IMG/VR virus record: IMGVR_UViG_3300028833_000081
Coordinates: 71,731 to 135,730 of that record
Source of the DNA: a virus
Taxonomy: Duplodnaviria > Heunggongvirae > Uroviricota > Caudoviricetes
Strand: one strand, 5' to 3'
Length of the DNA stretch: 64,000 nt
Position numbers and translations under genes: made by a program
The notes under the pieces: model-generated
Database searches by the model: none
Seen by the model: only the letters and a program-made list of their open reading frames with translations
Told to the model about the DNA's origin: nothing
Part shown: positions 419-45,389 of the stretch, in pieces
How the letters are laid out: each line of letters opens with the position of its first letter
How positions within the stretch are numbered: position 1 is the first letter of the stretch

Positions 419-3400
419 CTATTTACCATTCCAGATTTCTTCAACACGTTCCTTTAGACCAACCAACGCCTTGTTAGTGTATCCGAGGAAGAACACATCC
501 GGCACCTTACGGTTTACAACACCATAGGGGCTAGTACATGCATCAATCGGCTTATCAGGTCTATATTCAGAAATCGGAGTCTCGTTCTGAGGCAGAATAC
601 GGCTAACGATACTCTTCAGTGCCACGTCATACGTGAGCTTGTCACCGCAAGAATAATCGAGCAAGTGTGAGATGTAGAAGTTAATCATAACTCCTTCAAA
701 CGGAACACCCTTAGCCTTACTGTATTTGGCAATCTCGGTATCCTTACGCCTTACGAGCTGATCCTGTCTAACGTCAGCACAGACCTTGTTCACTGTTTCA
801 ACACTCTTGATATAAGCATTGATCAGCTTCTGCAAGCTCTCGCTGTATTCTTCGATGGGCTTATCATAGAACACTTCGATGTCTACAATAGTACCTTCGT
901 ACTTAGAAAGCTTAGAGTTTCTTGCATTAGCTTCAAGAGCTTCAGCCGTATCTTCATCCAGCTTGGAAAGCAACGAAGAGATTTCCTTACTTTCAAGGCT
1001 ACTTTCGAATACTGCCAAAGGTTCGCCTACCTTGATCTTGTCACCAACTTTCTTGATAGAAATCAAGTTAGAATCAGCAGTTAGACCAAGAGAAGTCTGT
1101 TCGATGACTTCGGAAGCCAGCTTTTCGGACAAGTTTTGACCAATTACGGAAGCATCTTCGTATGTCTGGTCTAGGCCACAGATTGCAACCTTAGCCAAGA
1201 CACCCTTAGACATTTCAATACCGTCTGCAGCATCTTCTGTGAAGAAGTGTTTATCAAAAGCCAGAACTTCATTCTCCTTGAACTTGTATCCAGCCTTGAC
1301 ACCCTTCTTCAATTCGTATTCAATATGAACAAAGAATCCAGAAGGAGTTCTACAGTACTTAGGACTCATATCGATAATGCCCTTAGTGCCATCATTGTAT
1401 TCGAGCTTCAGCAGGTATTTAACCTTGGAGTCAAATCCCTTAACTACGCCATCGCACGGAGCCTTAAAACAGTAGTCCTGAGACACAATGTTAGGAATAG
1501 CCTTGTACACGCCATTAGAGACAAGAGCCTTCGTCATGCCGACAGACGGAATCATATGACCAGTCTGAAGCACGCACATCATAGATCTTGCCGGGTCTGC
1601 ATGGTTCGGAGTAAAGGAAGCCGTAAGCTCGCCAGTACTATAGCACGATGTAGCGGAGATCTTGTTAGGATCTACCTGCTTCAAATATCCTCTCTTAGAT
1701 ACGACAGAGGAGTTCATGGACAATTTCTTGTTCATGCCAGCATTTCCATCGTAGGAAGAAGAGTAGCCATAGATACCAATCATACTCTTATCGAAGAAAC
1801 GGTGTTCTTCAGTACCCTGAGCATGTTGATAGTCAGGAGCACCGGGGCCTTTGAAGATGGCTTTAGCCATGTTTTCGCAGTCCTTGACCGGGTTAATCAA
1901 AGTGGAATCTTCGAAATTAGCAGTATCATTGATTTCTTCCATCAATGCATTACGCTTGATCTTGAAAGCTCCACCAGTACCAGTACCAGTTCTTCTATAA
2001 GATTCGATTTCTCTAGCCACGATCTTGTAAAGCATGGCGTTGATACATTCGGTATTACGGACACGATAGATTTCAGTATCAAAGCGTCTGTGGAACATGG
2101 AGTCGATCAACAGATCGTTACAATACAGGAAGCTACCAACGAGATCATTAGGAATGCCCTTATCTCTCAAGATATCCTTGGTAATAGGATCAATGAAGAG
2201 CACATAGAAGTTATCAAGGGCTCTGCCATATCTCGGAGTCAACTTGTCGGCAAAGTAATCAACGAAGCCTTGTCCGCTTGCGCCGTATTCTTCAACATTG
2301 TGCTTAGATGTTTCAAGCTGATGAAGACCGTTATAGAGCAAGTTATGGACAGGGTTAGTGTCCTTGAATACCAAGTAACCATTCTTAAACTTGATAGCTT
2401 CGGGGTATTCTTCAGATGCAGCAGGTCTATCCATACCCTTTTCAATAGGTAAGAACTTATAGTCTACGCCATAAGTATCAAAGATCTTTTCAATGCCTTC
2501 TTTATATCCCAAGAATACAATAAGCGGAATGTAAGCATTAGCCACTTCAAGCTTGGTAAACATCAGGCTAGATCCGGTATACTTACTGTTCTCAAGGATA
2601 TCGCTAATAGTCTTAGAGGATTCCTTGGCAGCAGCACTTATAAGTCCACACACAGATGGAGCAACTTCAGTCGGAGTATCTTTTTCAAGCATCATGACTT
2701 CACCGCTGATAGCAGCAAAGAGCATGTTACCCTTGTAGGTTCCGATATAGTTGTACTTATCTTCAGGGAAGAATTCTGCAATCTTTTCTTTATCCACAGA
2801 AGGTTTCTCAAGAGCTTCAACGCACTTCTTAGGATCAAAGTCAATTATAAGACTACCGATCTTGAGATACACAAGGAATTTGCTAATTTCTTCATATTCA
2901 AGGTTAAGAGCCTTACCGAATTTCTTTCTGTAACCTCTTCCTTGGACAATAAGAGCACCATCAGCAGTAGTCTTTCTTTCCTCATAGAGCTTTGCAATGC
3001 CTTTCTTCAAGGATGCAACCTTGCGGTTCAAGCTCTGTGTAGATCTAGAGATAAAGATCTTGTTATAGGAAGTAGAGTACTGTACAACCGGATCACCAGA
3101 TTGCCATACCTTAACGATAGGCATCAGAGTAATCTGTGTAGTGATCTGCTTTCTGTTACCTTGCAGATAAAGAAATCCGTCTTGGTCAACCTTCGGGATA
3201 TCCACGATAAGAGACTTCGGAGCGCCACCAGCAATGTTGAATTTGACATTGATGGTTTCCTTAGCATTGTAGGCATCAGAAGAGTCTTCCTTAGAGATAG
3301 AACTTACAAAGATCGGGAATTCGGAAGATTCAGAGAAGCTTGTAAAGATTCTGTACTGGTCATAATCATACAGATCCCTTTTATAAGCCTTTCTCAATGC

Positions 3401-5008
3401 CGGAACAATGGCTTTGTTCATTTCTTCATTGACGGCAGTAGTCTTGAACTCTTCGGGTTCCAGATTAGTATCTTCTAGTTCTTTAAGCTTTTCCTTAAGC
3501 GGAATGGTCTTACCATTGATGGTAAGAACAGCCTCTTCTTGTTTCTCTTCAAGCTGAGTAACGGCTTCAGCCTTCCTAATGTTCTGAACTTCCTGCAGTC
3601 TGTTAGCTTTAAGTTCAGTCTTGAGATCATTGACTCTAGTATCGTCATTGATCATTTTCATCAATTCATCAAAGGTCTTGCCCTTAGCTTCAGCACTGAT
3701 TTCATCAACACGATCCTTGATGGTATAAACGAGTTCCTTCTGTTCACTGGTCAAAGGAACGCTATTATTCATACCGGGAACACTCTTGATAATCTCTTCT
3801 TTCTTTTCAGCCAGAATGGGATTCTCTTCGGATCTGTCAATGAAAATCTTTACACCATTGACAGTATCACCGCTCTTCTTGATACCGATAATCTTGAACT
3901 GTTCAAGCTGAACAGAACCTTTGGATTTGTAGAAATTCTTGTTTTTCTCAAGAGTCTTAAAGGAATCATCTGTAGCTTTCAATCTATACAAGGCAATGGT
4001 CTTATTCATCATAGCCTTGATAGCATCGGCAGACTGGTCGTCGCCAGTGAAGATAATAGAATCTTCTACAGGATTACAAGCGGCATTGGGGTAAGTAGAA
4101 TTGATATAACTAGTAATAGCATCGACAGTAGAAGTATAAAGCTTAGTTCTAGAAGGAAATGTTTGGCTCTTTCCAGAGACAGCTCTTTCAACCATGAACA
4201 GATCAGTGGTAGTCTTTGTCTTTTCGACAGGAGCTTCTCCTTCAAGTTCTTCATTGAGATCCTCCTCCGTAATCTTCTGGTCGGTAGTTCCCTTGTAGCA
4301 CAGATTGACCATCCATCTGAATCTAGCAAAGGTCAGCTTATTAATATCCGGAGGGATGACAAACGTAAATCCAGACTTGGGTTCGTACAAGATGCACTTC
4401 CTGCCATAGAAAGGCCAGAAAGTCGGATCATCTTTAATAAAGGCATTCTTTGCAGCAAGATAGAACAAGGATCCAATGCAAAGACCTCTGATTCTCTGGG
4501 ATTCATTATCGCTGAAGTCTTTTCCGAAGATACTACCATCAATGACAACGTACTTGTCTTTATAAATATCTTCCTTACCACGCTTCATAATTACACTTTG
4601 CACTGCTGCAAAGTTTCTAATGAAGGCCATCTTATTCTTAGCGCCTGGGATTTCGAACAATCTGTTCAATTCCTGATACGTAGAGAAATAGGTATTCTTC
4701 AATCTGAGCTGGCCTTGGTTAAGCGGTGTCAGAGAGATACCAGTCTTTTCCTTGACCTGTTCATAGACAGCAAGTCTTTCTGTCTGAATGGTTCTCTTGA
4801 AGACAGACTTATCAAAGAATTTATCCAAATAGAAACAGCGAATATGCTGAGGATCGAACAGTCTGCTGTTCATGATTTGAATCATGTTTTCCAAACTTTC
4901 GGAAAAAATAAGAACGCTATTTTCATACTGCTTACGTTTAGTCGTAAAGACTATCGTAAGATTCTTAAATAGCTTGTACGGCTTTAGGAATTCAAATTTA
5001 GCTCTCAT
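419..5008 (-). CDS. giant virion-associated protein (about 1529 aa), function unknown
   Basis: 4.7-kb uninterrupted ORF. Start moved to Met58 (MRAKFEF) because AGGA lies 8 nt upstream; the first 57 aa of the track ORF look like run-on. Position beside the fibre-like gene suggests a structural role. No polymerase motifs found. Confidence 0.6.
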   Translation of the reverse strand: MRAKFEFLKPYKLFKNLTIVFTTKRKQYENSVLIFSESLENMIQIMNSRLFDPQHIRCFYLDKFFDKSVFKRTIQTERLAVYEQVKEKTGISLTPLNQGQLRLKNTYFSTYQELNRLFEIPGAKNKMAFIRNFAAVQSVIMKRGKEDIYKDKYVVIDGSIFGKDFSDNESQRIRGLCIGSLFYLAAKNAFIKDDPTFWPFYGRKCILYEPKSGFTFVIPPDINKLTFARFRWMVNLCYKGTTDQKITEEDLNEELEGEAPVEKTKTTTDLFMVERAVSGKSQTFPSRTKLYTSTVDAITSYINSTYPNAACNPVEDSIIFTGDDQSADAIKAMMNKTIALYRLKATDDSFKTLEKNKNFYKSKGSVQLEQFKIIGIKKSGDTVNGVKIFIDRSEENPILAEKKEEIIKSVPGMNNSVPLTSEQKELVYTIKDRVDEISAEAKGKTFDELMKMINDDTRVNDLKTELKANRLQEVQNIRKAEAVTQLEEKQEEAVLTINGKTIPLKEKLKELEDTNLEPEEFKTTAVNEEMNKAIVPALRKAYKRDLYDYDQYRIFTSFSESSEFPIFVSSISKEDSSDAYNAKETINVKFNIAGGAPKSLIVDIPKVDQDGFLYLQGNRKQITTQITLMPIVKVWQSGDPVVQYSTSYNKIFISRSTQSLNRKVASLKKGIAKLYEERKTTADGALIVQGRGYRKKFGKALNLEYEEISKFLVYLKIGSLIIDFDPKKCVEALEKPSVDKEKIAEFFPEDKYNYIGTYKGNMLFAAISGEVMMLEKDTPTEVAPSVCGLISAAAKESSKTISDILENSKYTGSSLMFTKLEVANAYIPLIVFLGYKEGIEKIFDTYGVDYKFLPIEKGMDRPAASEEYPEAIKFKNGYLVFKDTNPVHNLLYNGLHQLETSKHNVEEYGASGQGFVDYFADKLTPRYGRALDNFYVLFIDPITKDILRDKGIPNDLVGSFLYCNDLLIDSMFHRRFDTEIYRVRNTECINAMLYKIVAREIESYRRTGTGTGGAFKIKRNALMEEINDTANFEDSTLINPVKDCENMAKAIFKGPGAPDYQHAQGTEEHRFFDKSMIGIYGYSSSYDGNAGMNKKLSMNSSVVSKRGYLKQVDPNKISATSCYSTGELTASFTPNHADPARSMMCVLQTGHMIPSVGMTKALVSNGVYKAIPNIVSQDYCFKAPCDGVVKGFDSKVKYLLKLEYNDGTKGIIDMSPKYCRTPSGFFVHIEYELKKGVKAGYKFKENEVLAFDKHFFTEDAADGIEMSKGVLAKVAICGLDQTYEDASVIGQNLSEKLASEVIEQTSLGLTADSNLISIKKVGDKIKVGEPLAVFESSLESKEISSLLSKLDEDTAEALEANARNSKLSKYEGTIVDIEVFYDKPIEEYSESLQKLINAYIKSVETVNKVCADVRQDQLVRRKDTEIAKYSKAKGVPFEGVMINFYISHLLDYSCGDKLTYDVALKSIVSRILPQNETPISEYRPDKPIDACTSPYGVVNRKVPDVFFLGYTNKALVGLKERVEEIWNGK

Positions 5009-5096
5009 GAGGAATCCTTGTTTAGTTCTAATATGGAGTTCCATACAAAAAAGAAAGCCCGTCCTTGGATAAATCCTTAGATGAGCCGGGAAAACC

Positions 5097-5402
5097 CTAG
5101 TGAATGTTCTTCTTGCACTCGTTCCAGATGTTTGCAGCGATCTTGCTGTGCTTGGAAGCATCTTCGGCATGAACCGCAAGACGGAACACAGTCCAACCGA
5201 CCTTCACTTCGTCACGAGCGCTGATGGAGCTCTCGAAATCGGAGATGTCATCAATGAGACGACGAATGTCGGTTGCCTTGCTGCTTTCCGGATCGGGATC
5301 AACTTCAGACCAGCCGAGGAGCTTGAGCTCCTTCCCGAGTTCGACCTTGCTAGCCTTCAAGTCTTCCAAAAGGGTAGTTACCTGTTCTTTGTCCATCTTC
5401 AT
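5097..5402 (-). CDS. small acidic coiled-coil protein with GC3-rich codon usage (possible moron)
   Basis: 101-aa ORF. RBS aaagga sits 8 nt upstream of the ATG. Codons are G/C-ending, unlike neighbouring genes. Lies between the two giant genes, same strand. Confidence 0.45.
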   Translation of the reverse strand: MKMDKEQVTTLLEDLKASKVELGKELKLLGWSEVDPDPESSKATDIRRLIDDISDFESSISARDEVKVGWTVFRLAVHAEDASKHSKIAANIWNECKKNIH

Positions 5403-5514: not shown

Positions 5515-8500
5515 TTAAGATTGGAGACCGTCGAAACCGCCGCCGCAGATAACAAGTCTATCGAAGTTCTTATTATTAAACTGGAAGAATGTTGATCCGG
5601 TCTGGAATAATGCGCGAGTGTTCTTAGTCATCAGAGTCATATTGCTCAGGGCATTGAGTAAATAGTTATCTGATGCTGAATAGGTCATGATACCTAGACC
5701 GTTAGTCCAAGATTCAACCTCATAGCGAAGAGCCGTGTTATTGGGTGTTGAAATTATCTTTGTTGGTATCAGCAGAATATCTCTGTATTTTGCTTCAATC
5801 CCATATCCAATAACACGTATCCTATAATACGACGGAGATTTGGAAAAGATCATTTGCGCTATGGCGAGCGGGGATAGATCTCCGATGTCACTTGAAGCAT
5901 AGTAATTTCCACTGCTGACTTTGTATTTGTAATAAGAAAATACACTGCCAGCACTGTCGTTACTGGTTGAGTTAAACAGCCGTTTGACACGCATATTTTC
6001 GATATGGCTGTTAAGTAAACTCTCGGTTTCTATATTTAACATCGGCGCTAAGAAAGAATACTTGGGTACTCCGTTTATCGATATCGTAACCGGAACATAT
6101 CTTCCGAGATTCATTTCAGAGGCACTTTCGGAATGTTCGCCAGTGATTTGCGGATAATTTGACGAATTACCGCCACCAACAGTATACTCAATCTCGTCTA
6201 TTGGTGCCGAGAGAGCCTTTATTTCGCCATTATCAATATATACACCGTTACCAGCATCACCAATGTTTGCCGTGCATGCAAGAACCTGTCCGGACTGAAC
6301 GTATACAAACTTGTTGTTAGCGCCCTTACTTCCAGTGATACCAGAATTTGTTGCAGCTATAATACTAGCCCAAGAAGCTCTGCTCACTTCCTCGAATTTG
6401 TCAGCATTATTTTTGAAGGAAAATCCCTGTCCAGTACAATCTGTAGCTCTACGGTCACTATTGGCGGTGCCTTTGTTGTAGACAGCCAATGCTCCCGGAG
6501 TTAGTTTAGTACGGGCTGAACCGACGCCGCTACCTCCTGTCAGCCATATACCGTCACCGCCTTGTATAGCAACTTCGCATTCTGCTGTACCATTCTTTAG
6601 TCTATTATTAGCCCAACACGATAGTCCTTCTTCGCCAATGATAGTATGACCATCATAGTACAGTTCGGGATCGCCGTATCCTGAATAAAGCTCGTAATTC
6701 CTTGTTCCAACGAAGACACCATTTTTTTGGCCAGCACGCATCTCTCTAGTGCTTCCCTCGAATGTTCCAGTTTCAATACCAGGAATCTTAATAAAATTAC
6801 GATCCACATCCTTAGCGTCTATCACAATCTTGTAATAGTTTCTGTACGGGCCGCTTGTAATGGCCCAGAACATGCCCTTGCCTGGTGTAAGCTCACTAGC
6901 AGCAAAGGTGAAATCAGATGCAGTCCGGTTAGAGAATTCTGTCAGGATACGCTGGTTAAATATATACGAGCCTGTTGGAGACCAAGATGTAGTAGACGGG
7001 CCAAATGCGTCGCCAATCCCAATATGGTCAGCAAAGATTTCAGTATAATCGTTCTTAAGATTAGTCGAACTCTGTTTTTCATATCTTCTAAGGATAATAG
7101 ATGCTTGTGCCTCAAACGGATCACCATCCCTATAGGAATGTGCATCTATATCTATAGAAGAGTAAGCATAACCAGAGTTATAATTGGAAGCAATACTAAT
7201 AGATCCTCTATTTCTGTTATCGCTATCCGAAGATGTAGATTTTATTGTAATAGAACCATTAGTGTTCTTATACTCAGAACGAGCTCCTTTAGAATCGACA
7301 TTGTTATAGAGAGAATTGTAGAAGTCATATGCTATACCATGCATAGCTCCAGAGCTATTAACAGATCCTTCTATAACCTGTACCATAGTGTCATTGTAGC
7401 CAATTCTATAGACAGTATCGATATTAGAAGACGTAAGTTTAATAGTATTGCCGTAATCATAGATAGATGAGAAATTTCTATCAAGAGTAAATTCGAACGT
7501 ACCATAATCACTACTAGTGCTCATAGTAGCACGTAGCACTTTTTCTACATTGGATTCTTGATAGGTAGACTTAAGAATCAAAGCGCTCTTAGTATCTCTG
7601 TAGTATTCGCCGACATCCTCTCCTGCCATGAGCTTAGCAATATCAGCACCATTCTTAGACGAAAGAGTCTCGTTAACACTGTTCGCCTGAACAGTTGTTT
7701 GTGCATAATCGTTAGAACTGAATTCAAGAAGATCGCTAACTTGCACCTTAGAAGCGGTACGAACAGTTTGAGCAATACTTCCGTCATCATCAACACTTTG
7801 CGTGATTGTATTATTATTAGCGTCGCTCTTAGCTTCGAACGATGTCTGGTAATTACCACTACCAGATACAACATCACTCTTGGCAAAGATTCTGCTATAG
7901 CTACTGGAGGCATCAAGCTGAATGGAATGGTCATCGCTATCAGTGTTACTTTCAGCTACACGCAGAGTAGCACTACCGCCACTAGCACTCTGGAAATCTA
8001 CGCTAACATTATTGCCGTTAGACTGGATATACGAATGGTTATTCGTAGCCTTATCCATCTTAAAGCTATAGTCACCATTTTTAGCTACAGACATGTTAGC
8101 GGAAGATGTTCCGTTAACATTGCTAATAGTATTCGTTCTTACGCCATTGTCTATTGTGCTCTTCGCTTCAATAGAGCTGGAAGAATCATAACAGAGCGTT
8201 TCGTATACCTTCTCGTTAGAAGAATCAGTCTTATCGACAACACGATCGATATAAGAGCCGTTGGATTCCAACTTCTCTTCAGCTTTCTTGTTAGAAAGCT
8301 TCATTGTCTCTTTTTCATTTCCTCTATCGTAGGAAACTTCGATAGTGTCATTAGCACTAGCTCCTGCAATGATCTTTTTATCAGTGATACGATATGCAGA
8401 ATCATCTTTATAGAGCTTTTCTTCTGTCTTTAGCTTGTCACCATTGTTATAGGTTCCGTAAGTCTTTACTTCGGATGCCTTGTCAACATCAACAGTATCA

Positions 8501-10608
8501 GTAATCGTAGAATTAGAAGAAGTATTCTTAATTCCTTCGGTAACATAACCAGCACCGGATGCACCGTTGCTTACAAGTTTAACTTCGTGGATCTGTCCAT
8601 TATTATCGTTAGCACCACTGGTATGAATATGTTCCTTCGTATCAATGGTATGTGTAATGCCATTTCCTGTATTTGCTACAATGTCCTTAGATTCATTAAT
8701 AGTATAATTGTTACCGCTTCCAGAAACTTCGGTAACGCTAGAGGACTTTCTCTTCAGTTCCTTTGTTTCAGTAATACTATCAACAGAATTTTCACGAGAG
8801 ATTACACTCTTCTGTTCAATATCAGAAGTGACATTACTAGTTTCTGTAATTTTCTGCGTAGACCATTCTTCTACAGTTTGGCTATTAATACCATCATAGG
8901 AATCCGTTTTTCTAACTTGATCCTTGGTAATCTCAAGCTTATCAGAACCAGTTTTAGCATTAACACTCTTAGACTCTACAGTAACCTTATGATTTTCAGC
9001 AGTAGATCCGTCGATATCAATCTTTGTGCCAGCCTTTTCCGTAGAGCTATCTTTTTCGGAAATATGTACGTAAGACTTAGTCTGGGATTCTACATTAACA
9101 CCAGAACTATTCTGCGTAGTGTCTGCACTAATTTCTACTTTTTCGTTGTTGGACTGTACATTAGTAGATGCCTTAGCGCCACTTACTGTTTCTGTGATAT
9201 TACTGTTGTTGTTTTTGATTACGGTTTCACTAGGCTTTACAGAGGTATAAATCTCCTTATCATTACTAGTGATCTGAGCTTCGGACATGGACATTTCTGC
9301 CGCTGTCATGTGCATTGCGTCATCAACAAAAGCTACATTATATAGGAGAATGGAGCCACTCTTGATGGATGCAACATATCCTTCCCCAAGATAATAAATC
9401 TTGGAGAAATCTGCTTCGGAATAGTATGCAGCGTTCTCAAAAAGCTTAGAGAACAAGGTGTTATCAAGGTGTTCGTGGACAGAAACTAGATACCATTTAT
9501 TACCAAAGTTTCTAATAGCGAAAGCCTTGGAATTTCTAAGTTCCTCGTCATTCTTTTTGTATGCCTGATAGTCAATATCATCAATGAAACCAGTAGAGGC
9601 GCTACTTCCTAGATTAATACCAACCTGCTTGCCGTCAACAGAGACAGCTTGATCCTGTGTAACAGATACAAGAGAATTAATACCAAGGGAATGTGCTCTA
9701 GAAAGATTCGGGATCGTTGCAATAGTATAAGAATAGTAAGAACCATTGTAAGAAATGGTCGCTACATTATTTCCGCTAAAGGCATGATAAGTAGTGCTCT
9801 TACCTTCGATTCCATTAATAACAGGACAGAACTCCTGAACAGCCTTTGGAATAGAATGCTCGAAAGAGTATCCAGAAAGAGAGGCACCTGATATCGAAAC
9901 TTTAGTCTTAATATCTTCGTGAAGGTTGATAAGGCTCAATGCGCCATTATCAATCACTAGAAATACACCTTCTTCAGAAATCTGAAGAATAGAGTTTGCT
10001 TTTCTACCTAGAACGTGAAACTCTTCCGATCTAGTAAACATGTCTTCGTCTTCTTCAGATTCAGGAGTATCAGTCTTAAGAACAAAAAGCTCGAGAGTGT
10101 TGTCACTATACTTAACAAGGAAACCCATGCCAGCCGCAGTACGACACATAAAGATTCTTTCGGCGTTAGACCCGGCATTGAAAGCAAAGTTGAGCCGGAG
10201 TTCGGACTTTCTCAGTACACCGTTAAAGTCCTTGTACTCTACTCTACCAGTATTTCCTGTTTTAAGGATGGCTACGTACAGTTCATCCAAAGAAGTAATA
10301 TCTTTGATGTCCGTAGCTCTTCCGAGAATTTTATCATAAGACTCAAGAGTGCCTCTAGCCTTCAGATATTCGCCATTTTCGGTAAGAACATCGTAGTCAG
10401 AGTCATCGCCCATACAAACATACTTATGTACACCATTGTCGATAATGTGTGTATACACATTACCGAGCTTGTCAATAAAGATCTCTCCAACTCTAGGAAG
10501 ATCCGGATCCATAATTCTAGGTACATTACTATGTACAGGAGGATCGTAAGGCGTTCCAACGGAATTAGTCCAAGTCCATTTCAAAGGCTTAATAATAAAG
10601 CGACTCAT
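5515..10608 (-). CDS. tail fibre or receptor-binding-like giant structural protein (about 1697 aa)
   Basis: 5.1-kb ORF. Start at MSRFII has AAGGAG 6 nt upstream. Central 900 aa is extremely Ser/Thr/Asn/Asp-rich with short repeats, typical of fibres or adhesins. The C-terminal 400 aa is Gly/Tyr-rich and globular. Confidence 0.6.
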   Translation of the reverse strand: MSRFIIKPLKWTWTNSVGTPYDPPVHSNVPRIMDPDLPRVGEIFIDKLGNVYTHIIDNGVHKYVCMGDDSDYDVLTENGEYLKARGTLESYDKILGRATDIKDITSLDELYVAILKTGNTGRVEYKDFNGVLRKSELRLNFAFNAGSNAERIFMCRTAAGMGFLVKYSDNTLELFVLKTDTPESEEDEDMFTRSEEFHVLGRKANSILQISEEGVFLVIDNGALSLINLHEDIKTKVSISGASLSGYSFEHSIPKAVQEFCPVINGIEGKSTTYHAFSGNNVATISYNGSYYSYTIATIPNLSRAHSLGINSLVSVTQDQAVSVDGKQVGINLGSSASTGFIDDIDYQAYKKNDEELRNSKAFAIRNFGNKWYLVSVHEHLDNTLFSKLFENAAYYSEADFSKIYYLGEGYVASIKSGSILLYNVAFVDDAMHMTAAEMSMSEAQITSNDKEIYTSVKPSETVIKNNNSNITETVSGAKASTNVQSNNEKVEISADTTQNSSGVNVESQTKSYVHISEKDSSTEKAGTKIDIDGSTAENHKVTVESKSVNAKTGSDKLEITKDQVRKTDSYDGINSQTVEEWSTQKITETSNVTSDIEQKSVISRENSVDSITETKELKRKSSSVTEVSGSGNNYTINESKDIVANTGNGITHTIDTKEHIHTSGANDNNGQIHEVKLVSNGASGAGYVTEGIKNTSSNSTITDTVDVDKASEVKTYGTYNNGDKLKTEEKLYKDDSAYRITDKKIIAGASANDTIEVSYDRGNEKETMKLSNKKAEEKLESNGSYIDRVVDKTDSSNEKVYETLCYDSSSSIEAKSTIDNGVRTNTISNVNGTSSANMSVAKNGDYSFKMDKATNNHSYIQSNGNNVSVDFQSASGGSATLRVAESNTDSDDHSIQLDASSSYSRIFAKSDVVSGSGNYQTSFEAKSDANNNTITQSVDDDGSIAQTVRTASKVQVSDLLEFSSNDYAQTTVQANSVNETLSSKNGADIAKLMAGEDVGEYYRDTKSALILKSTYQESNVEKVLRATMSTSSDYGTFEFTLDRNFSSIYDYGNTIKLTSSNIDTVYRIGYNDTMVQVIEGSVNSSGAMHGIAYDFYNSLYNNVDSKGARSEYKNTNGSITIKSTSSDSDNRNRGSISIASNYNSGYAYSSIDIDAHSYRDGDPFEAQASIILRRYEKQSSTNLKNDYTEIFADHIGIGDAFGPSTTSWSPTGSYIFNQRILTEFSNRTASDFTFAASELTPGKGMFWAITSGPYRNYYKIVIDAKDVDRNFIKIPGIETGTFEGSTREMRAGQKNGVFVGTRNYELYSGYGDPELYYDGHTIIGEEGLSCWANNRLKNGTAECEVAIQGGDGIWLTGGSGVGSARTKLTPGALAVYNKGTANSDRRATDCTGQGFSFKNNADKFEEVSRASWASIIAATNSGITGSKGANNKFVYVQSGQVLACTANIGDAGNGVYIDNGEIKALSAPIDEIEYTVGGGNSSNYPQITGEHSESASEMNLGRYVPVTISINGVPKYSFLAPMLNIETESLLNSHIENMRVKRLFNSTSNDSAGSVFSYYKYKVSSGNYYASSDIGDLSPLAIAQMIFSKSPSYYRIRVIGYGIEAKYRDILLIPTKIISTPNNTALRYEVESWTNGLGIMTYSASDNYLLNALSNMTLMTKNTRALFQTGSTFFQFNNKNFDRLVICGGGFDGLQS

Positions 10609-10686
10609 AAAGTCTCCTTGCATTTGATTATCAATGATAAAGTTTTTGTAAAAAATTCCAGTATGGAAATACCATACTGGATAATT

Positions 10687-11343: not shown

Positions 11344-11430
11344 TATTTAATTTCACAATATCGAGTTTTGAATTTTTTTCTTAAGTATTAAATAGAAAAA
11401 AAAAATAATAGGAAACAAGTTCCTATTATT

Positions 11431-11574
11431 TGTTGATGGCGAGGAGTCTGAGGCGTTTTTTGTGGCATTTTTCGCAGATGCCGCCGCAGAATTTGTCTTT
11501 CGGTGGTTTGAATCTGTTGCCGCATTTGATGCAGTTTTTGTATTTGCTAGTGAGGATTTGTGGTACCATAATGA
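11431..11574 (-). CDS. zinc-ribbon mini-protein (47 aa)
   Basis: Translation MVPQILTSKYKNCIKCGNRFKPPKDKFCGGICEKCHKKRLRLLAINK. RBS aggaga precedes the ATG. Two CxxC-like pairs. Not in the ORF track (under 60 aa). Confidence 0.4.
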
Positions 11575-11661
11575 TCTCCTTGGTTAAAGACCTCTAATAA
11601 TATGCAATAGAGTATAATAAAATTACGCAAAACTCGAAAATGAATAATCATTGGAGGATTT

Positions 11662-12525
11662 ATGAATACAGCTCTATGCTTGTCTGTATCTGGTGGCGGT
11701 ATCCTTGGTGTAGGCCCTGCCCACTATCTTGCCCGTCTTGAAGGAGACCTTGGGTATTCTCTTCATAAGAAACTTGCAGCTCAAGGTGGAACCTCTACCG
11801 GGTCTATCATTGCTGCTGCTATGGCAGAAGAAATTCCGGCAATAGAAATTGAGGAACTCTACCGTTCGAAAGGTTCTAGAATCTTTACTAAATATCCTTG
11901 GTATAAGAGACTCACTCCGACCTGTCCTACGTACGACAATTCTAACCTTAAAAAGATTCTGAAAGACAAGTTCAAGGGTAAACTCTGCGACTGGGGTGAA
12001 CCGACTTTCATCACCACTACATACATGAACGGAAGATCTGTCGAGAAGATTTGGGATGAAAAAGATGTTGAAGAAAAGTGGTTTGCTATTCTTACATCTT
12101 GTGCTGCTCCGACATACTTTGACGTGATTATCGACAACCTCGCAAGAAGCTTTTGTGATGGCGGTATGTGGGCTAATTCCTGTCCTCAGCTTGTGATGGC
12201 TGGAATGTTCCGTAGAGGTCATCGTGATATTCGTATTCTGAACCTTGAAACTGGTATGGATGTTCCAAACAATGATAGCGGAAATAAGACTTTGATAGGA
12301 TGGGCTACATACATCTTTAAGAAGTGGGTAGCCAGAGCTTCTAAAGCTAACGCATATATTTGCTCTTCTGTTCTTGGCGACGAGAACTTCTTCAACGTGA
12401 TGCCTGTATCTCATAAGACTCATGAAATGGACGATATGAGAGAGATTGATATTGTAACTGATATCTGGGATAAGAAGTACGACCAAGATCGTGAAAAGCT
12501 CTTAAGATTTGTGGATCCGAGGTAA
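11662..12525 (+). CDS. patatin-like phospholipase (PNPLA family)
   Basis: Oxyanion box SGGGILGVG, nucleophile elbow G-T-S-T-G (GxSxG), and catalytic Asp in DGGMWANSCP (DGGxxxNxP). RBS ggagga upstream. Confidence 0.8.
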   Translation: MNTALCLSVSGGGILGVGPAHYLARLEGDLGYSLHKKLAAQGGTSTGSIIAAAMAEEIPAIEIEELYRSKGSRIFTKYPWYKRLTPTCPTYDNSNLKKILKDKFKGKLCDWGEPTFITTTYMNGRSVEKIWDEKDVEEKWFAILTSCAAPTYFDVIIDNLARSFCDGGMWANSCPQLVMAGMFRRGHRDIRILNLETGMDVPNNDSGNKTLIGWATYIFKKWVARASKANAYICSSVLGDENFFNVMPVSHKTHEMDDMREIDIVTDIWDKKYDQDREKLLRFVDPR

Positions 12526-12527
12526 CT

Positions 12528-12965
12528 ATGTTGTATCACTCTAGAATGATTAATGCTAGACGTGGCCCATTCGATCAGGTTGATGCTGAGCTCTATAACT
12601 TTTTCAAGCAGGGTGATACATTAGCCGTAAGATACACATCCAAGAATTTTGCCTTGTTTGTCAATGATAAGCAGTACAGCTCTAGGATCGATATCACTCC
12701 AGACGAAGGTGGATACTATCTTATCGATACAATTAAAGGCAGATTCTTCTTGGAGAGAAACGAAGAAGATTACTTCATCATGCCAGCTAGAACCTATAAG
12801 GATGTAAATGGCGAAACCCAGTTTTGTCCTGACGATTCTAATAAGCTCCGACTGAAGAAAATTAGAAAGCCCTTTATCGGTGGCAAGAATTGCGCCTGTT
12901 CTATCCCCTATGGAAAAAGGTGTAATCGGAAGATGGGCCAACGACCTCTCAATGCTGGTATATAG
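12528..12965 (+). CDS. hypothetical protein (145 aa), inside the patatin/protease module
   Basis: Tightly packed between the phospholipase and ATPase-protease genes. C-terminal Cys/Lys-rich tail (GGKNCACSIPYGKRCNRK). Confidence 0.5.
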   Translation: MLYHSRMINARRGPFDQVDAELYNFFKQGDTLAVRYTSKNFALFVNDKQYSSRIDITPDEGGYYLIDTIKGRFFLERNEEDYFIMPARTYKDVNGETQFCPDDSNKLRLKKIRKPFIGGKNCACSIPYGKRCNRKMGQRPLNAGI

Positions 12966-12997
12966 GGGAACTTTAGAATGAAACAAAAGGATCTTTT

Positions 12998-14974
12998 ATG
13001 AACAAAGAATCGATGAAAAAATATGACGAGCTCATGGAAGCCGCTACTAAGATCAAGGGTATGCTCCTTGATTGTGACAAGCAAGTTGACCAGTTTGCAC
13101 AGCTGTTGGCTCCTTGGTACTGCGCTCCTGAGCTGCTCACGAAACCTCTGGTTATCAATATGGTCGGTATGACTGGTATTGGTAAGACTCAGATGTTCCG
13201 TCTGTTCTGCTCCGAACTTGGGCTGAACAATATGGCTGAAACCATGACTTGTGCTAACAATTCTTCTGTATCCCCCGGTAGAACGGCTTTCAGAATGAAG
13301 GAAGAACAGGGTCTTGAGAAAGGTATTATCTTCATCGATGAATTCCAGAACTTCTCTTGCAAGGGAATGATGGGTACTAGAACAAACAATCCTAGTACAC
13401 AGGAATTCTGGGATATCTTGTCTGATGGAAAGATCAAGATTAATTTCTCCAAAGATGAACTTGAGAACCTGATGTTTAGAGCTCAGGGTCAGATGAATGA
13501 AATAGCTAAGGCTGCTGCCAGCGGAGAAAAGTCTCTCGAAAGAAACTTTCCGACATTCTTCGGTTCTACTGCCTATAAGCTGTTCATCCTTTGTAAGAAG
13601 AAAGTTCCTCTGGAAAAAATTAAGAAGATGTCTGGTAAGGAATCCTTTGAATTTATTAAGGGTCTTTACGACAACTACGACAATAAGCCGATCTACTCTG
13701 ACTTTACGAAGTTCCTGTTTGTCACTGCTTGCAATCTTGACTGTGTATTTGCTGATGCTGAAGACGTAGCTTCCTGTGAAATCGATGCAGATGAAGTATA
13801 CGAGTCTTCTAAGGAAGTAAATATCTTCGATGTTAAGGAAGGACTTGGCATGTACTTCTTCCCTGAACAAGTAGCAAGACTTGGCAATAACTTTGTCATC
13901 TTCCACTCTCTGTCCAAGAGCACATTTGAAAAGCTCATTGATAATGCTCTTGACGAAATTGTCAAGAACACTAAGGAATCTATCGGAACAGAGATTACCT
14001 TTGATAAGTCTGTCAAGGAAATGATCTACCGCAACGGTGTATTCCCGACTCAAGGTGCTAGACCTTTGATTTCTACTATCAATGGTGTGATCGCTTCTTC
14101 TATCCCTATGCTTGTCTTCAAACAAAAGGAAGCAGATAAGAAGATTACGATTAAGTACAATGATGAGACCATGGAGCTTGAAGCAAATGGCGTTAAGACC
14201 AGTTGCATTGGGCCATATGACGAGAGCGCAAGAAGAATCAAAGTCAGAATAAACGAAAGACGTTGTACGTCTGTTCATGAATCTGGCCATGCTATTGTCT
14301 ATGCCGAATCTTTTGGAGCAATTCCTAGAAAGATGGTTAGTATTGTAGCTGACTCTAGAGTTGCTGCCGGGTTTATTTCTACACATCTTATCCGTCACAC
14401 CTGTGTTACAATGAAGGCATACATCTGTGTGGCACTGGCTGGAATGGTCGCCGAAGAGGTCGTCTTTGGTAAGGACTTCAGAACTGTCGGTTGCTCTTCT
14501 GACTTGGCTAAGGCTACTGCAATGGCTGCTGCTTATGTTAGAAAGTTTGCATTCACTGATAAGGTCAAGGCAGTTGTCGGCACTAATGAAGCTACATATA
14601 ATAAGATGTCTGAAACGTCTGAAGTTATCAACGACATTATCAAAGAATGCATCAAGACAACTAAGGAAATCATTACAAAGAATATTGATCTCCTTAAGGA
14701 AGTCTCTGAAGTAATGTTTGATAAGACCAGATGTACTCCGGAAGAATTCAAGGCTATTGCCGATAAACACAACAAAAAATACACGATTGTCAGTGCCTCC
14801 AAGAAGATTACTCCTAACTTTGAAGAACGCTACAAGATGTTCGATGAATCCAAAGTCAAGAGTATGGAGGAGGTATCTAATGCTAAGGAATGTATGTCAT
14901 TCTTCGATGATGCATACGTCGGAGCAGATGGCACTATGTCTCTAGCATCTGATGATCCTTTCCTGCTGTTCTAA
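12998..14974 (+). CDS. P-loop ATPase fused to FtsH-like (M41) zinc metalloprotease, soluble (no TM segments)
   Basis: Walker A GMTGIGKT and Walker B IIFIDEF. HESGHAIV (HExxH) is followed by a region collinear with the FtsH protease domain (PRKMVSIV..., AEEVVFG..., SSDLAKATAMAAAYV). No N-terminal hydrophobic helices. Confidence 0.75.
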   Translation: MNKESMKKYDELMEAATKIKGMLLDCDKQVDQFAQLLAPWYCAPELLTKPLVINMVGMTGIGKTQMFRLFCSELGLNNMAETMTCANNSSVSPGRTAFRMKEEQGLEKGIIFIDEFQNFSCKGMMGTRTNNPSTQEFWDILSDGKIKINFSKDELENLMFRAQGQMNEIAKAAASGEKSLERNFPTFFGSTAYKLFILCKKKVPLEKIKKMSGKESFEFIKGLYDNYDNKPIYSDFTKFLFVTACNLDCVFADAEDVASCEIDADEVYESSKEVNIFDVKEGLGMYFFPEQVARLGNNFVIFHSLSKSTFEKLIDNALDEIVKNTKESIGTEITFDKSVKEMIYRNGVFPTQGARPLISTINGVIASSIPMLVFKQKEADKKITIKYNDETMELEANGVKTSCIGPYDESARRIKVRINERRCTSVHESGHAIVYAESFGAIPRKMVSIVADSRVAAGFISTHLIRHTCVTMKAYICVALAGMVAEEVVFGKDFRTVGCSSDLAKATAMAAAYVRKFAFTDKVKAVVGTNEATYNKMSETSEVINDIIKECIKTTKEIITKNIDLLKEVSEVMFDKTRCTPEEFKAIADKHNKKYTIVSASKKITPNFEERYKMFDESKVKSMEEVSNAKECMSFFDDAYVGADGTMSLASDDPFLLF

Positions 14975-14975
14975 T

Positions 14976-15254
14976 ATGGAAACTGCTGAATTCGCACTGT
15001 ACAAATTTAAGACTATCGAAGGTGTTGATATCCACTGGAAATCAGGAGATTTCACACATTCGAAGTATTGTCATAATGGTAAGAGTGCCGAGATAGAGTA
15101 TTTTCCTGCAACTGACAGAGCTATGGTCACCTTTAAAGGTGAGCTAAAGCCAGCTGTTAAGTTCGACAAGCTGCGAGAGTATCTCGAAACATTAGGTATC
15201 TTCAAAGAGTCACCTAAGGAAGAGAGACATTCAAGCTCTTATGCACCCTTATAG
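14976..15254 (+). CDS. hypothetical protein (92 aa)
   Basis: ATG 2 nt after the protease stop. Last gene of the plus-strand block before a bidirectional terminator. Confidence 0.4.
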   Translation: METAEFALYKFKTIEGVDIHWKSGDFTHSKYCHNGKSAEIEYFPATDRAMVTFKGELKPAVKFDKLREYLETLGIFKESPKEERHSSSYAPL

Positions 15255-15303
15255 AAAAAAAAAAGAAGCTCCCTATACAGACAAGTATAGGGCGCTTATT
15301 TTC
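15251..15303. terminator. bidirectional terminator between convergent genes
   Basis: A10 run, hairpin agctccctatac/gtatagggcgct, then a T-rich run. Confidence 0.6.
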
Positions 15304-25652: not shown

Positions 25653-26159
25653 CTAGAATCTTTTGCCAACAGAGTGAGCGAAATCCTTGAAGAACTTTGC
25701 GTTAGCATCCTTATGCTGATCAATCACAGCAAAGTCACGGAGCTGGTTGTACAGCTTCTTGGGCTGACGGAGCATCCACTTCTTAAGGTTGCGAATAGTG
25801 TCTTCAGTCTTACCAACACGCTTGATGTTAAACTTGGCGTAATTCTGTTCCGGCTGTTCTTCAGTCTTCCTAGTCCAGACTTCGACATAGTAATAGTCGA
25901 ACTTTTTCTTAGTATCCGGATCTTCTTCGGTATTATGTACAAAAGCGAAATCAACAGTACTACGAAGGAAAGGATGAGTAGATTCAACCTTCATAGCTTC
26001 TTCAACTGCCTTCATGTCAACCATAGGCAGGGTCTTCTTCTTGAAGGGCTTCTTTTCGCCATTAGCCTTAGGCGGGAGTGCGGTCTTCTTGAAAGAATAT
26101 TTCTTAGCCTTACTGACTTCTTTGATGATCGGTTCCTGAGTCTTGACTTCTTCGGTCAT
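25653..26159 (-). CDS. hypothetical basic protein (168 aa)
   Basis: ORF with ggagat RBS. Lys-rich N-terminus. Confidence 0.5.
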   Translation of the reverse strand: MTEEVKTQEPIIKEVSKAKKYSFKKTALPPKANGEKKPFKKKTLPMVDMKAVEEAMKVESTHPFLRSTVDFAFVHNTEEDPDTKKKFDYYYVEVWTRKTEEQPEQNYAKFNIKRVGKTEDTIRNLKKWMLRQPKKLYNQLRDFAVIDQHKDANAKFFKDFAHSVGKRF

Positions 26160-26228
26160 GTTTATCTCCTAATTGGGTTAGAAAGTCTCTAATTTATATA
26201 TAGTTCTGTTTCAAATAACTATATATAA

Positions 26229-27275: not shown

Positions 27276-27766
27276 TGATAAACTTAGGAGAGTTGAGTAT
27301 AGCCGAAGAGACTAGTTTTGTTCAGTCGATGATGTTTTTCACAGGTATACTGGACGGAAGTCGAAGTTTCGGAATCGACACCAGTGGAACACGATTGGAT
27401 AATCCAACCATGTTCAGACCGATAATAAAACTGACTAATATCTTTTCCGATGGAACTTTTGGAACAGAGATTTCAGTAATCAGTTGTTATTCATTCTTAA
27501 CGGAAAATGTACGCTTTGAATGTCCACCTGTTAAAGTAAGTCCAGTGTATGATCACATTATGCTGAAATTCATGATAGGATCTTTAGAAAGAAAAGTAGA
27601 AACAATAAACCTTCTTACTGAAGCAAAAAACATTTCTATTGAGAATAGTTTCTCCGAATCCAGAGGTCAAAATGGACAAGTACCCCGGACTGAATTACGT
27701 CATAGCGATAACTATTATCGCTCTAGTCGCAGCAATAGTGATTCCCCCAATGGTGGAATCAACTAA
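27272..27766 (+). CDS. hypothetical protein (164 aa); 3' end overlaps the next gene in another frame
   Basis: ATGA overlap with the upstream gene. The C-terminal 35 aa look low-complexity. Confidence 0.35.
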   Translation: MMINLGELSIAEETSFVQSMMFFTGILDGSRSFGIDTSGTRLDNPTMFRPIIKLTNIFSDGTFGTEISVISCYSFLTENVRFECPPVKVSPVYDHIMLKFMIGSLERKVETINLLTEAKNISIENSFSESRGQNGQVPRTELRHSDNYYRSSRSNSDSPNGGIN

Positions 27767-27962
27767 GAATCTCTACTACGGATTTATCACTAGTAGGTTC
27801 AAGCCAAATAATTTCCAGTCTGTCATCAGACGTAAGAAGAAAAATGTACTGGTGTATGACAGATACATGCATACCTTTGTAGTGTATCAATATTATAATA
27901 AGACTTGGAACAAGGTAGCTTCTGCATTCCATGAGAGAGGAGTTGAAGGATTTATGCGGTAG
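27672..27962 (+). CDS. small membrane protein
   Basis: Start MDKYPGLNYV has agaggt 6 nt upstream. Hydrophobic helix VIAITIIALVAAIVI. Confidence 0.4.
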   Translation: MDKYPGLNYVIAITIIALVAAIVIPPMVESTKNLYYGFITSRFKPNNFQSVIRRKKKNVLVYDRYMHTFVVYQYYNKTWNKVASAFHERGVEGFMR

Positions 27963-28001
27963 CCAAGAACTATATAGTGAAACCTAACCCGGAGTAGCTA
28001 T

Positions 28002-28467: not shown

Positions 28468-30261
28468 ATGGAACACCCAGAATGGAAAAACTCTATTCCG
28501 ATTGATCTTGTTGTACCCTATGTTGATTCATCTGATCCAGAATGGAAGAAGAATTTTAGAGAGACCATACGTCACTTTATTGGAGGTAACTCCCCATCAC
28601 GTTATAGACCGCTAGGCCTATTTAAGTATTTCTTCCGTGGCGTAGAAGCTAATATGCCATGGATTAGAAAGATTCATCTCATTGTTGCTTCTGAATCTCA
28701 GATACCATCTTGGATTGAACGAAAAAATCCAAGGCTCAATGTAGTTCTTCATAGGGATTATATACCTGCAGAGTTCCTGCCTACATTCAATAGCAATGTT
28801 ATTGAAATGTTCTATCATAGAATTAAGGATCTCTCCGAAAATTTCATTATTGCAAATGATGATATCATCGCAGCAAGTTATCATTCTGAGTATGATTATT
28901 TCAGAAATGATACTCCTGTTGATGTTAAGAATACAGCCTCGTTGAGAAAGAAGCTCGGAATTTATGATTTTAATACTACACTTGTGCACGATGCTGAAGT
29001 CTTACGCAAAGTAATGAATAACAAGAACATTCTTCCATTTTCTATCTATCACAAGTTTAATCCAATGAAGAAGAGCACAATGGTGGAACTCTGGTCTAAA
29101 GCTGGTGCTGATTTTAACAAAAGTCTAACAAGATCACCATTTAGACTGTCAAGGAACGTTACCTGGCATATATTCAGGTTTTATAGACTTCTTAAAGGAG
29201 AATTCATTCTCGACAATTCTATTCTTGATGGTTACAAGTTCATATCCGTAAAAAATCAGTTGAGCCTCAAGTCCGTGTCCATAAAAAGGTTTAAGACCGT
29301 TTGTCTCAATGACGATATTAAGGTTAATACACCGAAAGTAGAGCAAGAACTTAATCATCATCTAATTGAAGCTGTTGGCAACGCTGAATCCTCATTCGAG
29401 AAAGGTGCTGATCCTAGAAAACTCGCATTTGCTAGCCTGACAGTCAATAGACTAGAAGAGATGTCGATAGACGAACTGAAAAAGCACATTGTTCCAGTAC
29501 AGGATCCAGAGTTCATTATTTCGGTTACTTCATTCGGCAAACGCATTGCGAATATGGGCAGGATGGTTCACTCTGTCTTAGTACAAGGAAGAAGAGACGT
29601 TAAATTGTATCTATCGTTATATAAGGACGATGTTCCTAATATAACCCCGTTTATCAAACGGCTAATTGATGCTGATATAATCGGTCTTCTTGTTTCCGAT
29701 ACTGACTACGGGCCACATCTTAAATATATTCCAGCTATGGAAAAATTCAGAGATAAAGCCATCATTACTTTTGATGATGATCGTATTTACAGTACATTTT
29801 CACTTGACCGTCTGATTCAAAAGTATAAAGAAGTCAAGTATAAAAGTGTTATAGCTAATATCGCTATAGAAGTACAGCGACAGGGCGAAAAGGTTCTCCC
29901 AATGGTGAAATGGCGAAGCCATAGGATTCCCAGCCACGCTAAGTCTATGAAGGCTATGGCAGAGGGATTCGGAGGAGTCCTGTATCCGCCTAGTATTTTC
30001 CCTGATATGAATACCATAAAGAAAGAAGCTCTCGAAATAAAGTATGACGACGATCTATTCTTAAGGATTATGGAAAGTAGGCTTGGAATTCCTGTTACGA
30101 ATACAGATAAAAATGGCGTAAAGGAATTCTCCGCACAGATTAATGAGTCTCTTCCTTGGAATCTTCATGTTAATATCAACTCTATTACAAGTTCCGGTGG
30201 AAACCGTGATAGAATGATTAACAAATATTCTGCGGAGCTTCTTAAGATCGCAAAGTCTTAA
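28468..30261 (+). CDS. Stealth-family hexose-1-phosphotransferase fused to a second glycosyltransferase-like domain
   Basis: Stealth conserved regions in order: IDLVVPYVDSSDPEW (CR1), MPWIRKIHLIVASESQIPSWI (CR2), LPTFNSNVIEMFYHRI (CR3), IIANDDII (CR4). C-terminal 270 aa has GT-like SVTSFGKRI and DDD motifs. Confidence 0.75.
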   Translation: MEHPEWKNSIPIDLVVPYVDSSDPEWKKNFRETIRHFIGGNSPSRYRPLGLFKYFFRGVEANMPWIRKIHLIVASESQIPSWIERKNPRLNVVLHRDYIPAEFLPTFNSNVIEMFYHRIKDLSENFIIANDDIIAASYHSEYDYFRNDTPVDVKNTASLRKKLGIYDFNTTLVHDAEVLRKVMNNKNILPFSIYHKFNPMKKSTMVELWSKAGADFNKSLTRSPFRLSRNVTWHIFRFYRLLKGEFILDNSILDGYKFISVKNQLSLKSVSIKRFKTVCLNDDIKVNTPKVEQELNHHLIEAVGNAESSFEKGADPRKLAFASLTVNRLEEMSIDELKKHIVPVQDPEFIISVTSFGKRIANMGRMVHSVLVQGRRDVKLYLSLYKDDVPNITPFIKRLIDADIIGLLVSDTDYGPHLKYIPAMEKFRDKAIITFDDDRIYSTFSLDRLIQKYKEVKYKSVIANIAIEVQRQGEKVLPMVKWRSHRIPSHAKSMKAMAEGFGGVLYPPSIFPDMNTIKKEALEIKYDDDLFLRIMESRLGIPVTNTDKNGVKEFSAQINESLPWNLHVNINSITSSGGNRDRMINKYSAELLKIAKS

Positions 30262-42354: not shown

Positions 42355-42431
42355 TGGTAGCAAAGGCTGGGATCGAACCAGCGACCCTCGGACTAGTTGT
42401 CCGATGCTCTAACCAACTGAGCTACTTAGCT
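42355..42431 (-). tRNA. tRNA (77 nt) with atypical anticodon loop CAACUAG; identity undetermined
   Basis: Cloverleaf read by hand. Acceptor AGCUAAG/CUUUGCU has one U-U mismatch. U8 present. D-arm GCUC-AGUUGGUUA-GAGC with G18/G19. Anticodon stem UCGGA/UCCGA. 5-nt variable loop. T-arm GCUGG-UUCGAUC-CCAGC. Discriminator A, then CCA. Position 33 is A rather than the near-universal U, so canonical 34-36 reads ACU. Confidence 0.7.
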
Positions 42432-45350: not shown

Positions 45351-45389
45351 TGATTTGTATATTATACAATAGAAACTTTTAGAGGTAAT
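45347..45389 (+). promoter_or_regulatory. promoter plus leader cassette (tttgatttgtatattatacaatagaaacttttagaggtaat)
   Basis: About 42-nt unit repeated exactly at 47961-48002. Confidence 0.5.

Follow-up and report, generated by a model that had tools for sequence, protein, structure and literature searches.

CapV and CapE, the lipases of cyclic oligonucleotide-based antiphage signalling systems (CBASS), are single-domain cytoplasmic proteins with a patatin fold and a GxSxG plus DGG catalytic dyad (AbCapV, PDB 8zr9/9jeh; 9kh6; CapE, 9iom). The Arg/Lys of the CapV glycine box, whose motif is defined as GGGx[K/R]G, contacts the lipid phosphate (R21 in AbCapV), and the residues of AbCapV that contact cyclic GMP-AMP (cGAMP) are F147, K149, D159, E207 and R279 (PMC12480259). 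FtsH, Yme1 and AFG3L2 carry an ATPase and an M41 protease on one polypeptide. An FtsH-like protein of unknown function was annotated in the Pseudomonas jumbo phages MIJ3 (gp107) and PA5oct (gp342) (PMC6892783, PMC7318152). Here, an operon encoding a patatin and an M41-containing protease was analysed in a 64,000-nt stretch of a Caudoviricetes record (IMG/VR IMGVR_UViG_3300028833_000081, positions 71,731 to 135,730), which is referred to below as the window. In the reading considered reasonably probable, the two enzymes of the locus are autonomous: one is a lipid hydrolase of host origin directed at the host envelope, the other a soluble zinc protease that uses ATP to degrade proteins of the cytoplasm. 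Literature searches covering patatins of phages, lipases of EPI vesicles and soluble M41 proteases turned up no account of either family.

The region is one jumbo-phage operon encoding four cytoplasmic proteins, with a candidate promoter or leader at approximately 11600-11660 and a bidirectional intrinsic terminator at 15271-15292 (8-bp stem, A-run before, T-run after). Four open reading frames (ORFs) on the + strand, separated by intergenic gaps of 2, 32 and 1 nt and each preceded by a ribosome-binding site (GGAGG/GAGG/AAGGA), encode the patatin (287 aa, 11662-12525), a basic orphan protein of 145 aa (g145, 12528-12965), the protease (658 aa, 12998-14974) and a protein of 92 aa (g92, 14976-15254; 100 aa from an alternative ATG at 14952). 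All four were taken from the ORF list; the patatin was further assigned using Pfam, PADLOC, NCBIfam, AlphaFold2 and Foldseek, and the protease using Pfam, NCBIfam and solved-structure profiles. The first-pass annotation, made from the letters and their ORFs, had described four co-directional, tightly packed genes ending at a strong bidirectional terminator; the ORFs were confirmed at their coordinates and the hairpin was called on both strands. The terminator closes both the operon and a convergent - strand gene, and no + strand terminator-like site was found inside the four-gene operon. Hydrophobic segments, transmembrane segments and signal peptides were absent from all four proteins. The window was assigned to a jumbo phage because it encodes a 1586-aa RNA polymerase beta-like protein (match to phage RNA polymerase beta PHROGs, E = 1e-141; 28-31% identity to homologues from PBS1, Listeria LPJP1, Staphylococcus S6-like and Yersinia phiR1-37 phages) and a virion structural protein, and because a 235-kb metagenomic contig bears an identical 658-aa protein. 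An anaerobic ribonucleotide reductase is also encoded in the window, and a blastn search of the region against deposited phages gave no match.

The patatin motifs were identified by direct reading as S10-GGGILG16, G43-TSTG47 and D166-GGMWANSCP. The glycine box, nucleophile elbow and Asp box of the first-pass annotation were thereby found in place, although the Asp box is DGGxxxNxxP and not the DGGxxxNxP that had been given. The protein matched Pfam Patatin PF01734 with 49.8 bits (cut-off 27.7, E = 6e-13), the PADLOC CBASS phospholipase effector models (E = 1e-37 and 1.5e-36) and NCBIfam CBASS_lipase (NF041079, E = 5e-33). The catalytic residues Ser45 (GTSTG) and Asp166 (DGG) were invariant in 32 homologues and 24 loci. 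An AlphaFold2 model built from the 32 homologues had a predicted local distance difference test score (pLDDT) of 89.5, and in Foldseek it gave template modelling (TM) scores of 0.74-0.83 to CapV, CapE, plant patatin and iPLA2beta (0.80-0.83 for CapV and plant patatin, 0.76-0.79 for CapE). The profile and structure searches thus supported the patatin fold and, for the 658-aa protein, the M41 domain (Pfam E = 6e-20). The 287-aa protein is confidently predicted to be a cytoplasmic patatin-fold hydrolase with a Ser45-Asp166 dyad, and catalytic activity would be expected of it. In its glycine box, Leu15 stands at the Arg/Lys position of phospholipases, and Leu occupies this position in every phage homologue. 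ATGL-type PNPLAs likewise have Leu there and act on neutral lipids, for which reason the substitution is taken to be compatible with activity, though suggestive of a different substrate.

By profile and solved-structure match, the closest characterised relatives of the patatin are CapV and CapE. Every solved structure matched by its sequence at E < 1e-6 was a cyclic-nucleotide-activated lipase (CapV or CapE), and the patatin-family profile matched CapV/CapE at 1.5e-22 to 1e-14 and plant patatin at 2e-10. To this extent the resemblance to CBASS CapV patatins suggested by the first-pass annotation was upheld, but score, glycine box and genomic neighbourhood all separate the protein from CapV. 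Its score of 114.7 bits is below the NF041079 equivalog cut-off of 200; in place of the CapV-type box, Leu is found in the Fibrobacter homologues described below as well as in the phage proteins, and distant bacterial relatives keep Arg (GGGxRG). PADLOC detected no cyclase or other defence match among the proteins neighbouring the operon, in agreement with the earlier remark that no cyclase was visible. Nor was a cyclase present among the ten neighbours scanned in other patatin contexts or beside the Fibrobacter homologues, and no gene family besides the patatin itself was common to all contexts. Relative to CapV and CapE, the phage patatin is 45-75 residues shorter, has Leu where AbCapV has R21, does not clearly conserve the ligand-loop residues and is without a CD-NTase partner, both in the phage and beside its nearest cellular homologues. 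Profile alignments placed EK[IV]WD of the phage family at the CapV KTPHNP ligand loop and AbCapV E207 in an insertion that has no counterpart in the phage family. AbCapV D159 was aligned to the invariant D135 of the patatin, and two CapV alignments differed on K149; judging from these alignments, the cGAMP-contacting residues are not clearly retained. Nothing indicates control of the patatin by a cyclic nucleotide. Identification of the protein as CapV was ruled out by the sub-cut-off score, the Leu for Arg, the lack of a cyclase and the stand-alone Fibrobacter relatives.

The 658-aa protein had been annotated as a soluble FtsH-like ATPase/metalloprotease. Its Walker A/B motifs, M41 HExxH and solubility were all recovered, but the ATPase is of Clp type and is not collinear with the FtsH ATPase core. 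Direct reading gave GMTGIGKT (57-64), DEF (114-116) and HESGH (427-431). The protein matched Pfam Peptidase_M41 with 72.3 bits (cut-off 29.9, E = 6e-20), and H427, E428, H431 and D502 of the M41 zinc site were invariant in 16 homologues. The ATPase part was matched by Pfam ClpB_D2-small (E = 5e-8) and Pfam AAA, with AAA_2 matching in homologues. Among NCBIfam models, FtsH TIGR01241 scored 65.9 bits against a cut-off of 600 and covered the M41 part only, and ClpB/ClpV models matched the ATPase. Solved-structure profiles assigned residues 418-597 to Yme1/FtsH and residues 232-402 to the D2 domain of ClpC/ClpE/Hsp104; the ATPase also matched structures of ClpA, HslU and ClpX, and not the FtsH ATPase. 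Walker A G57-T64, D114/E115, N246, R294 (PEQVAR) and R355 (GARP) were invariant among the 16 homologues, and N246, R294 and R355 are presumably sensor-1, Arg finger and sensor-2, respectively, as in the ClpB D2 motifs. No N-terminal transmembrane anchor was found, the highest 19-residue hydropathy being 1.59, in the AAA lid region. In comparison with FtsH, Yme1 and AFG3L2, the M41 HExxH and the GCSSDL Asp ligand align end to end and the ATPase and protease likewise share one polypeptide, whereas the transmembrane helices are lacking and the ATPase combines AAA_2 with ClpB_D2-small, its Arg finger lying in PExxxR and its sensor-2 in GARP. Judged by these motif and profile matches, the protein is a soluble Clp/Hsp100-D2-type unfoldase fused to a complete M41 zinc peptidase domain, and it is predicted to be active.

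The protease family comprised 819 matches, and more than 50 contigs of huge phages (100-550 kb) carry a member. Members were also found in chromosomes of Bacteroidota and Patescibacteria, alone among unrelated housekeeping genes. In Chryseobacterium sp. BLS98 (locus L082, 565-3509) the protease gene lies directly 3' of a DUF4407 gene with a 14-nt gap; this partner did not occur in the other bacterial loci examined. A tblastn search of approximately 50,000 deposited phage genomes, using the window protein and a central family member, returned no full-length homologue, only short M41-region matches, mostly to bacterial-type ftsH. MIJ3 gp107 and PA5oct gp342 are similar in being jumbo-phage genes annotated as FtsH-like, but neither phage was detected by tblastn, so that they are not demonstrably of the same family. 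With both phages absent from the matches, identification of the protease as the known jumbo-phage FtsH was dropped.

Cellular homologues of the patatin were sought in one genome per prokaryotic species. The closest were full-length proteins of 38-42% identity on seven contigs of Fibrobacter metagenome-assembled genomes from sheep rumen, yak omasum and horse faeces (RGIG6669, RUG12208, RGIG9772 and others). These stand-alone proteins, uncharacterised as well, are like the phage patatins in length class and share their GGGALG (Leu), NGxSVEKVWD and CDGGMWAN signatures; they differ in being cellular genes amid chromosomal housekeeping neighbours (SecA, GH5 cellulase, thymidylate kinase, lipid A acyltransferase and NifU). 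Because Fibrobacter chromosomes carry homologues with the same signatures, the patatin is best seen as a host-derived gene of a clade common to rumen Fibrobacter chromosomes and a large jumbo-phage group. The phages of this group probably infect Fibrobacter, since the closest cellular patatins are chromosomal Fibrobacter genes and since a protein with a Fibrobacter-type Fib_succ_major domain adjoins the patatin in a related phage locus (L016, 6459-7919). A barnase-like secreted-type Ribonuclease (PF00545) adjoins the Fibrobacter patatin in two loci (L165, 5321-5974; L170, 7072-7758); the immediate neighbours scanned in the other Fibrobacter loci gave no ribonuclease match.

Among phages, the patatin was found in approximately 75 other contigs at 41-54% identity and in at least five contexts besides that of the window; tblastn of the patatin against deposited phages gave no match. 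In five related loci it lies directly 3' of a 177-aa gene on the same strand, the product of which matched a PHROG endolysin family (5e-14) and has M15-like SGxR / DHxxGxAxD / H motifs. This adjacency to an endolysin-like gene modestly favours a role of the patatin in envelope breakdown. In loci L023, L024 and L025 (approximately 8016-8824), the patatin homologue was recovered as three tblastn segments in different frames, with only a 120-aa C-terminal ORF left; the split could reflect a pseudogene, an intervening element or an assembly error common to the three contigs.

The first-pass annotation had treated the four genes as a module resembling an effector/regulator pair, a view that comparison with relatives did not bear out. 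The triplet of patatin, g145 and protease occurred only in the window and in loci L001, L002 and L028-L030, with proteases of 61-81% identity; elsewhere the two enzymes are separate or far apart. The flanking genes, encoding RNA polymerase beta, 218-aa, 148-aa and 157-aa proteins and the virion protein, are also collinear in these loci, and because of this the linkage of the triplet is no stronger than background synteny. At 45-47% identity, protease homologues had no patatin within 8 kb, and on the 259-kb contig 3300028832_000002 patatin and protease are approximately 150 kb apart. Among contigs of at least 200 kb, pattern-seeded scans gave a protease match in only 2 of approximately 18 with a patatin, and a patatin match in only 2 of approximately 19 with a protease. 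No gene family recurred beside the protease across 57 loci, the only recurrent "families" being antisense ORFs within the protease gene itself.

The two small proteins differ in distribution. The g145 protein is an orphan known from six clusters worldwide, present only where patatin and protease adjoin, and it has a beta-rich core and, at the C-terminus, a conserved Cys4 motif (C100, C122, C124, C132; P-x-GKRC) and a tail that is strongly conserved yet predicted to be disordered. No family, fold, adaptor or inhibitor similarity was found for it, and searches of g145, g92, the zinc-ribbon protein described below and the products of the flanking genes against Pfam, PHROGs, PADLOC and NCBIfam gave nothing usable. 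Homologues of g92 were found in L001 (59% identity) and in L005, L019 and L022 (32-36%), in the latter three approximately 7 kb from the patatin, and L002 and L028 lack g92 at the operon position; these proteins form a small family of their own with a wider, scattered distribution. Conservation of the four-gene order, which had been put forward as a check, was accordingly not observed, neither g92 nor the zinc-ribbon gene being constant even within the sublineage. The adjacency of patatin, g145 and protease is best read as a rearrangement fixed in one sublineage, the genes being co-transcribed by historical accident.

If the two enzymes are autonomous, lipids of the host envelope are the most likely substrate of the patatin during infection, and it would most probably aid envelope breakdown at or near lysis, with membrane remodelling as the alternative. 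The protease may form a hexameric, self-compartmentalising assembly in which a Clp/Hsp100-D2-type AAA+ ring would unfold substrates with ATP and feed them to the fused M41 zinc site, in analogy to FtsH or Lon, though unanchored in the membrane. Its substrates are probably host or phage proteins in the cytoplasm. Several observations weigh against this reading of two independent enzymes. The endolysin-like neighbour is confined to one patatin subclade, and no such gene lies near the patatin in the window. The loss of the glycine-box Arg/Lys could reduce or change patatin activity. The absence of partner genes from contigs was based on the pattern-seeded scans, which are able to miss divergent copies. 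The three genes are tightly packed, probably with translational coupling, and stay together down to 58-61% identity, with g145 diverged to 29% and found nowhere else; the same picture would be expected of a lineage-specific functional cassette. Only through the restriction of g145 to the triplet does such a cassette stay in play.

In its explicit form, the cassette of this sublineage would be a protease-gated lipase. Here g145 would inhibit the lipase or act as an adaptor, the protease would remove g145 by way of its tail, and timed removal would free the lipase to permeabilise the membrane, as a timer for lysis or host takeover. The operon structure with its 2-nt and 32-nt gaps, the retention of the triplet at 58-61% identity, the occurrence of g145 only where both enzymes adjoin and its conserved, predicted-disordered C-terminal tail and Cys4 motif all fit this arrangement; set against them, collinearity in these genomes extends over the entire region, which makes the linkage background, many phages have either enzyme without the other and without g145, and g145 has no similarity to a known adaptor or inhibitor. 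On balance such gating is judged unlikely. The bolder proposal that patatin, g145 and protease form a self-contained, protease-timed membrane-lipase switch that replaces or supplements a holin, with the g145 tail as degron, or, as a second possibility, that the lipase is responsive to an immune nucleotide of the host, is decidedly doubtful.

Descent from CBASS would offer another function, either as a decoy, in which the patatin soaks up or caps the cyclic-nucleotide-activated CapV filaments of the host, or as a hijack, in which the lipase is switched on by the host alarm nucleotide. That CapV and CapE are the nearest characterised relatives by profile and structure and that D135 aligns with the ligand-contacting D159 of AbCapV (PMC12480259) speak for such a counter-defence device. 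It is nevertheless very unlikely: the patatin scores 115 bits where the CBASS_lipase cut-off is 200, profile alignments show other residues at the KTPHNP loop and place E207 in an insertion missing from the phage family (residues from PMC12480259), the catalytic dyad is invariant and would be needless in a mere sponge, the nearest cellular homologues stand alone in Fibrobacter without a cyclase beside them, and the fit of the model to plant patatin is nearly as good as that to CapV. It is highly improbable that the phage carries the operon to exclude competing phages or abort their infections, the lipase serving as suicide effector. Patatin effectors are common in defence systems, as the PADLOC matches show, and a variable cargo slot lies immediately upstream of the patatin, but the neighbouring proteins include no sensor, cyclase or other defence-family match, and the patatin sits between core-type genes, those for RNA polymerase beta and the virion protein. 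It is also widely and vertically retained in approximately 75 jumbo-phage contigs, whereas accessory defence genes are patchy.

Both enzymes belong to known classes. The novelty lies in a clade of phage and Fibrobacter patatins without the phosphate-binding Arg and in a Clp-type/M41 fusion protease widespread in huge phages, both of them uncharacterised; a new defence or toxin-regulator system was not supported by comparison with relatives. The fusion would be a fourth unfoldase-peptidase combination after FtsH, Lon and ClpXP-type systems, and it may reveal how huge phages reshape the host proteome. The Arg-less lipase clade suggests that the lipid substrate is non-canonical and that phages of a key rumen fibre degrader use a lipase to assist an envelope step, and the link to Fibrobacter provides a means of host assignment for a large group of uncultured rumen jumbo phages. 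As a caution for similar loci, tightly packed toxin-like and regulator-like genes should be taken as evidence for a system only where their linkage persists after general synteny is lost.

Upstream of the operon, the divergent zinc-ribbon mini-gene noted in the first-pass annotation was confirmed (11426-11569, - strand; 47 aa, CxxC...CxxxCxxC pattern, AAGGAG ribosome-binding site). It was not conserved in relatives: it is unique to the window, L001 is without it, and other genes fill the slot in L002 and L028. The gene is lineage-specific cargo outside the conserved gene set. The variable slot that holds it lies between the 218-aa gene and the patatin (window, 11344-11661; L001, 6571-6664; L002, 5984-6653; L028, 5860-6664), contains nothing in L001 and unrelated - strand genes of approximately 160 and 207 aa in L002 and L028, respectively, and is always flanked by inverted copies of a AAACTCGA-type motif. 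In the window, these are a 15-mer with one copy, CAAAACTCGATATTG, at 11356-11370 (- strand), upstream of the divergent 218-aa gene, and its inverted partner, CAAAACTCGAAAATG, at 11628-11642 (+ strand), 20 nt 5' of the patatin start codon. Only these two exact copies occur within the window. Both positions are kept in L001, and degenerate versions are present in L002 and L028; the 15-mer common to the operon and the divergent gene showed no enrichment across the window. The pair is a possible shared promoter or 5'-UTR element, and CAAAACTCGAAAATG a candidate operon promoter or leader element.

A second class of short motif marks the block of small genes at 33-57 kb. The 12-mer TTGTATATTATA gave 26 matches at no more than 2 mismatches between 33791 and 56636, compared with 10.6 expected (examples at 45355, 47308, 47968, 50339 and 50913), placed just 3' of G+C-rich hairpin plus T-run terminators and approximately 25-35 nt ahead of many small + strand genes. 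It looks like the early promoter class of the phage, and we take it to resemble the phiKZ early consensus TATATTAC. No member of the class was found upstream of the operon; an early-promoter-like 12-mer with 2 mismatches is present near the zinc-ribbon gene, at 11607-11596. Palindromic TATATAGT/ACTATATA elements at 26197-26225 and 27971-27980 lie between divergent gene pairs (25653-26159 (-)/26269-26793 (+) and 27759-27932 (-)/28002-28220 (+), respectively) and could represent a further class of operators or promoters.

Elsewhere in the window, the N-terminal 450-590 aa or so of the RNA polymerase beta-like protein (419-5179, - strand) were without a match. A 1702-aa Ser/Asn/Thr-rich protein (5515-10623, - strand) had no family match, and close relatives keep only its first 500 aa or so. 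A single tRNA gene, for tRNA-Ser (anticodon ACT; 42355-42431, - strand), occurs in the window and lies in a 376-bp gap beside locally higher G+C. A 597-aa protein (28468-30261, + strand) has Stealth CR2/CR4 regions (capsule-type hexose-1-phosphoryltransferase) and a weak GT2 glycosyltransferase match, a surface-polysaccharide enzyme that is unusual for a phage.

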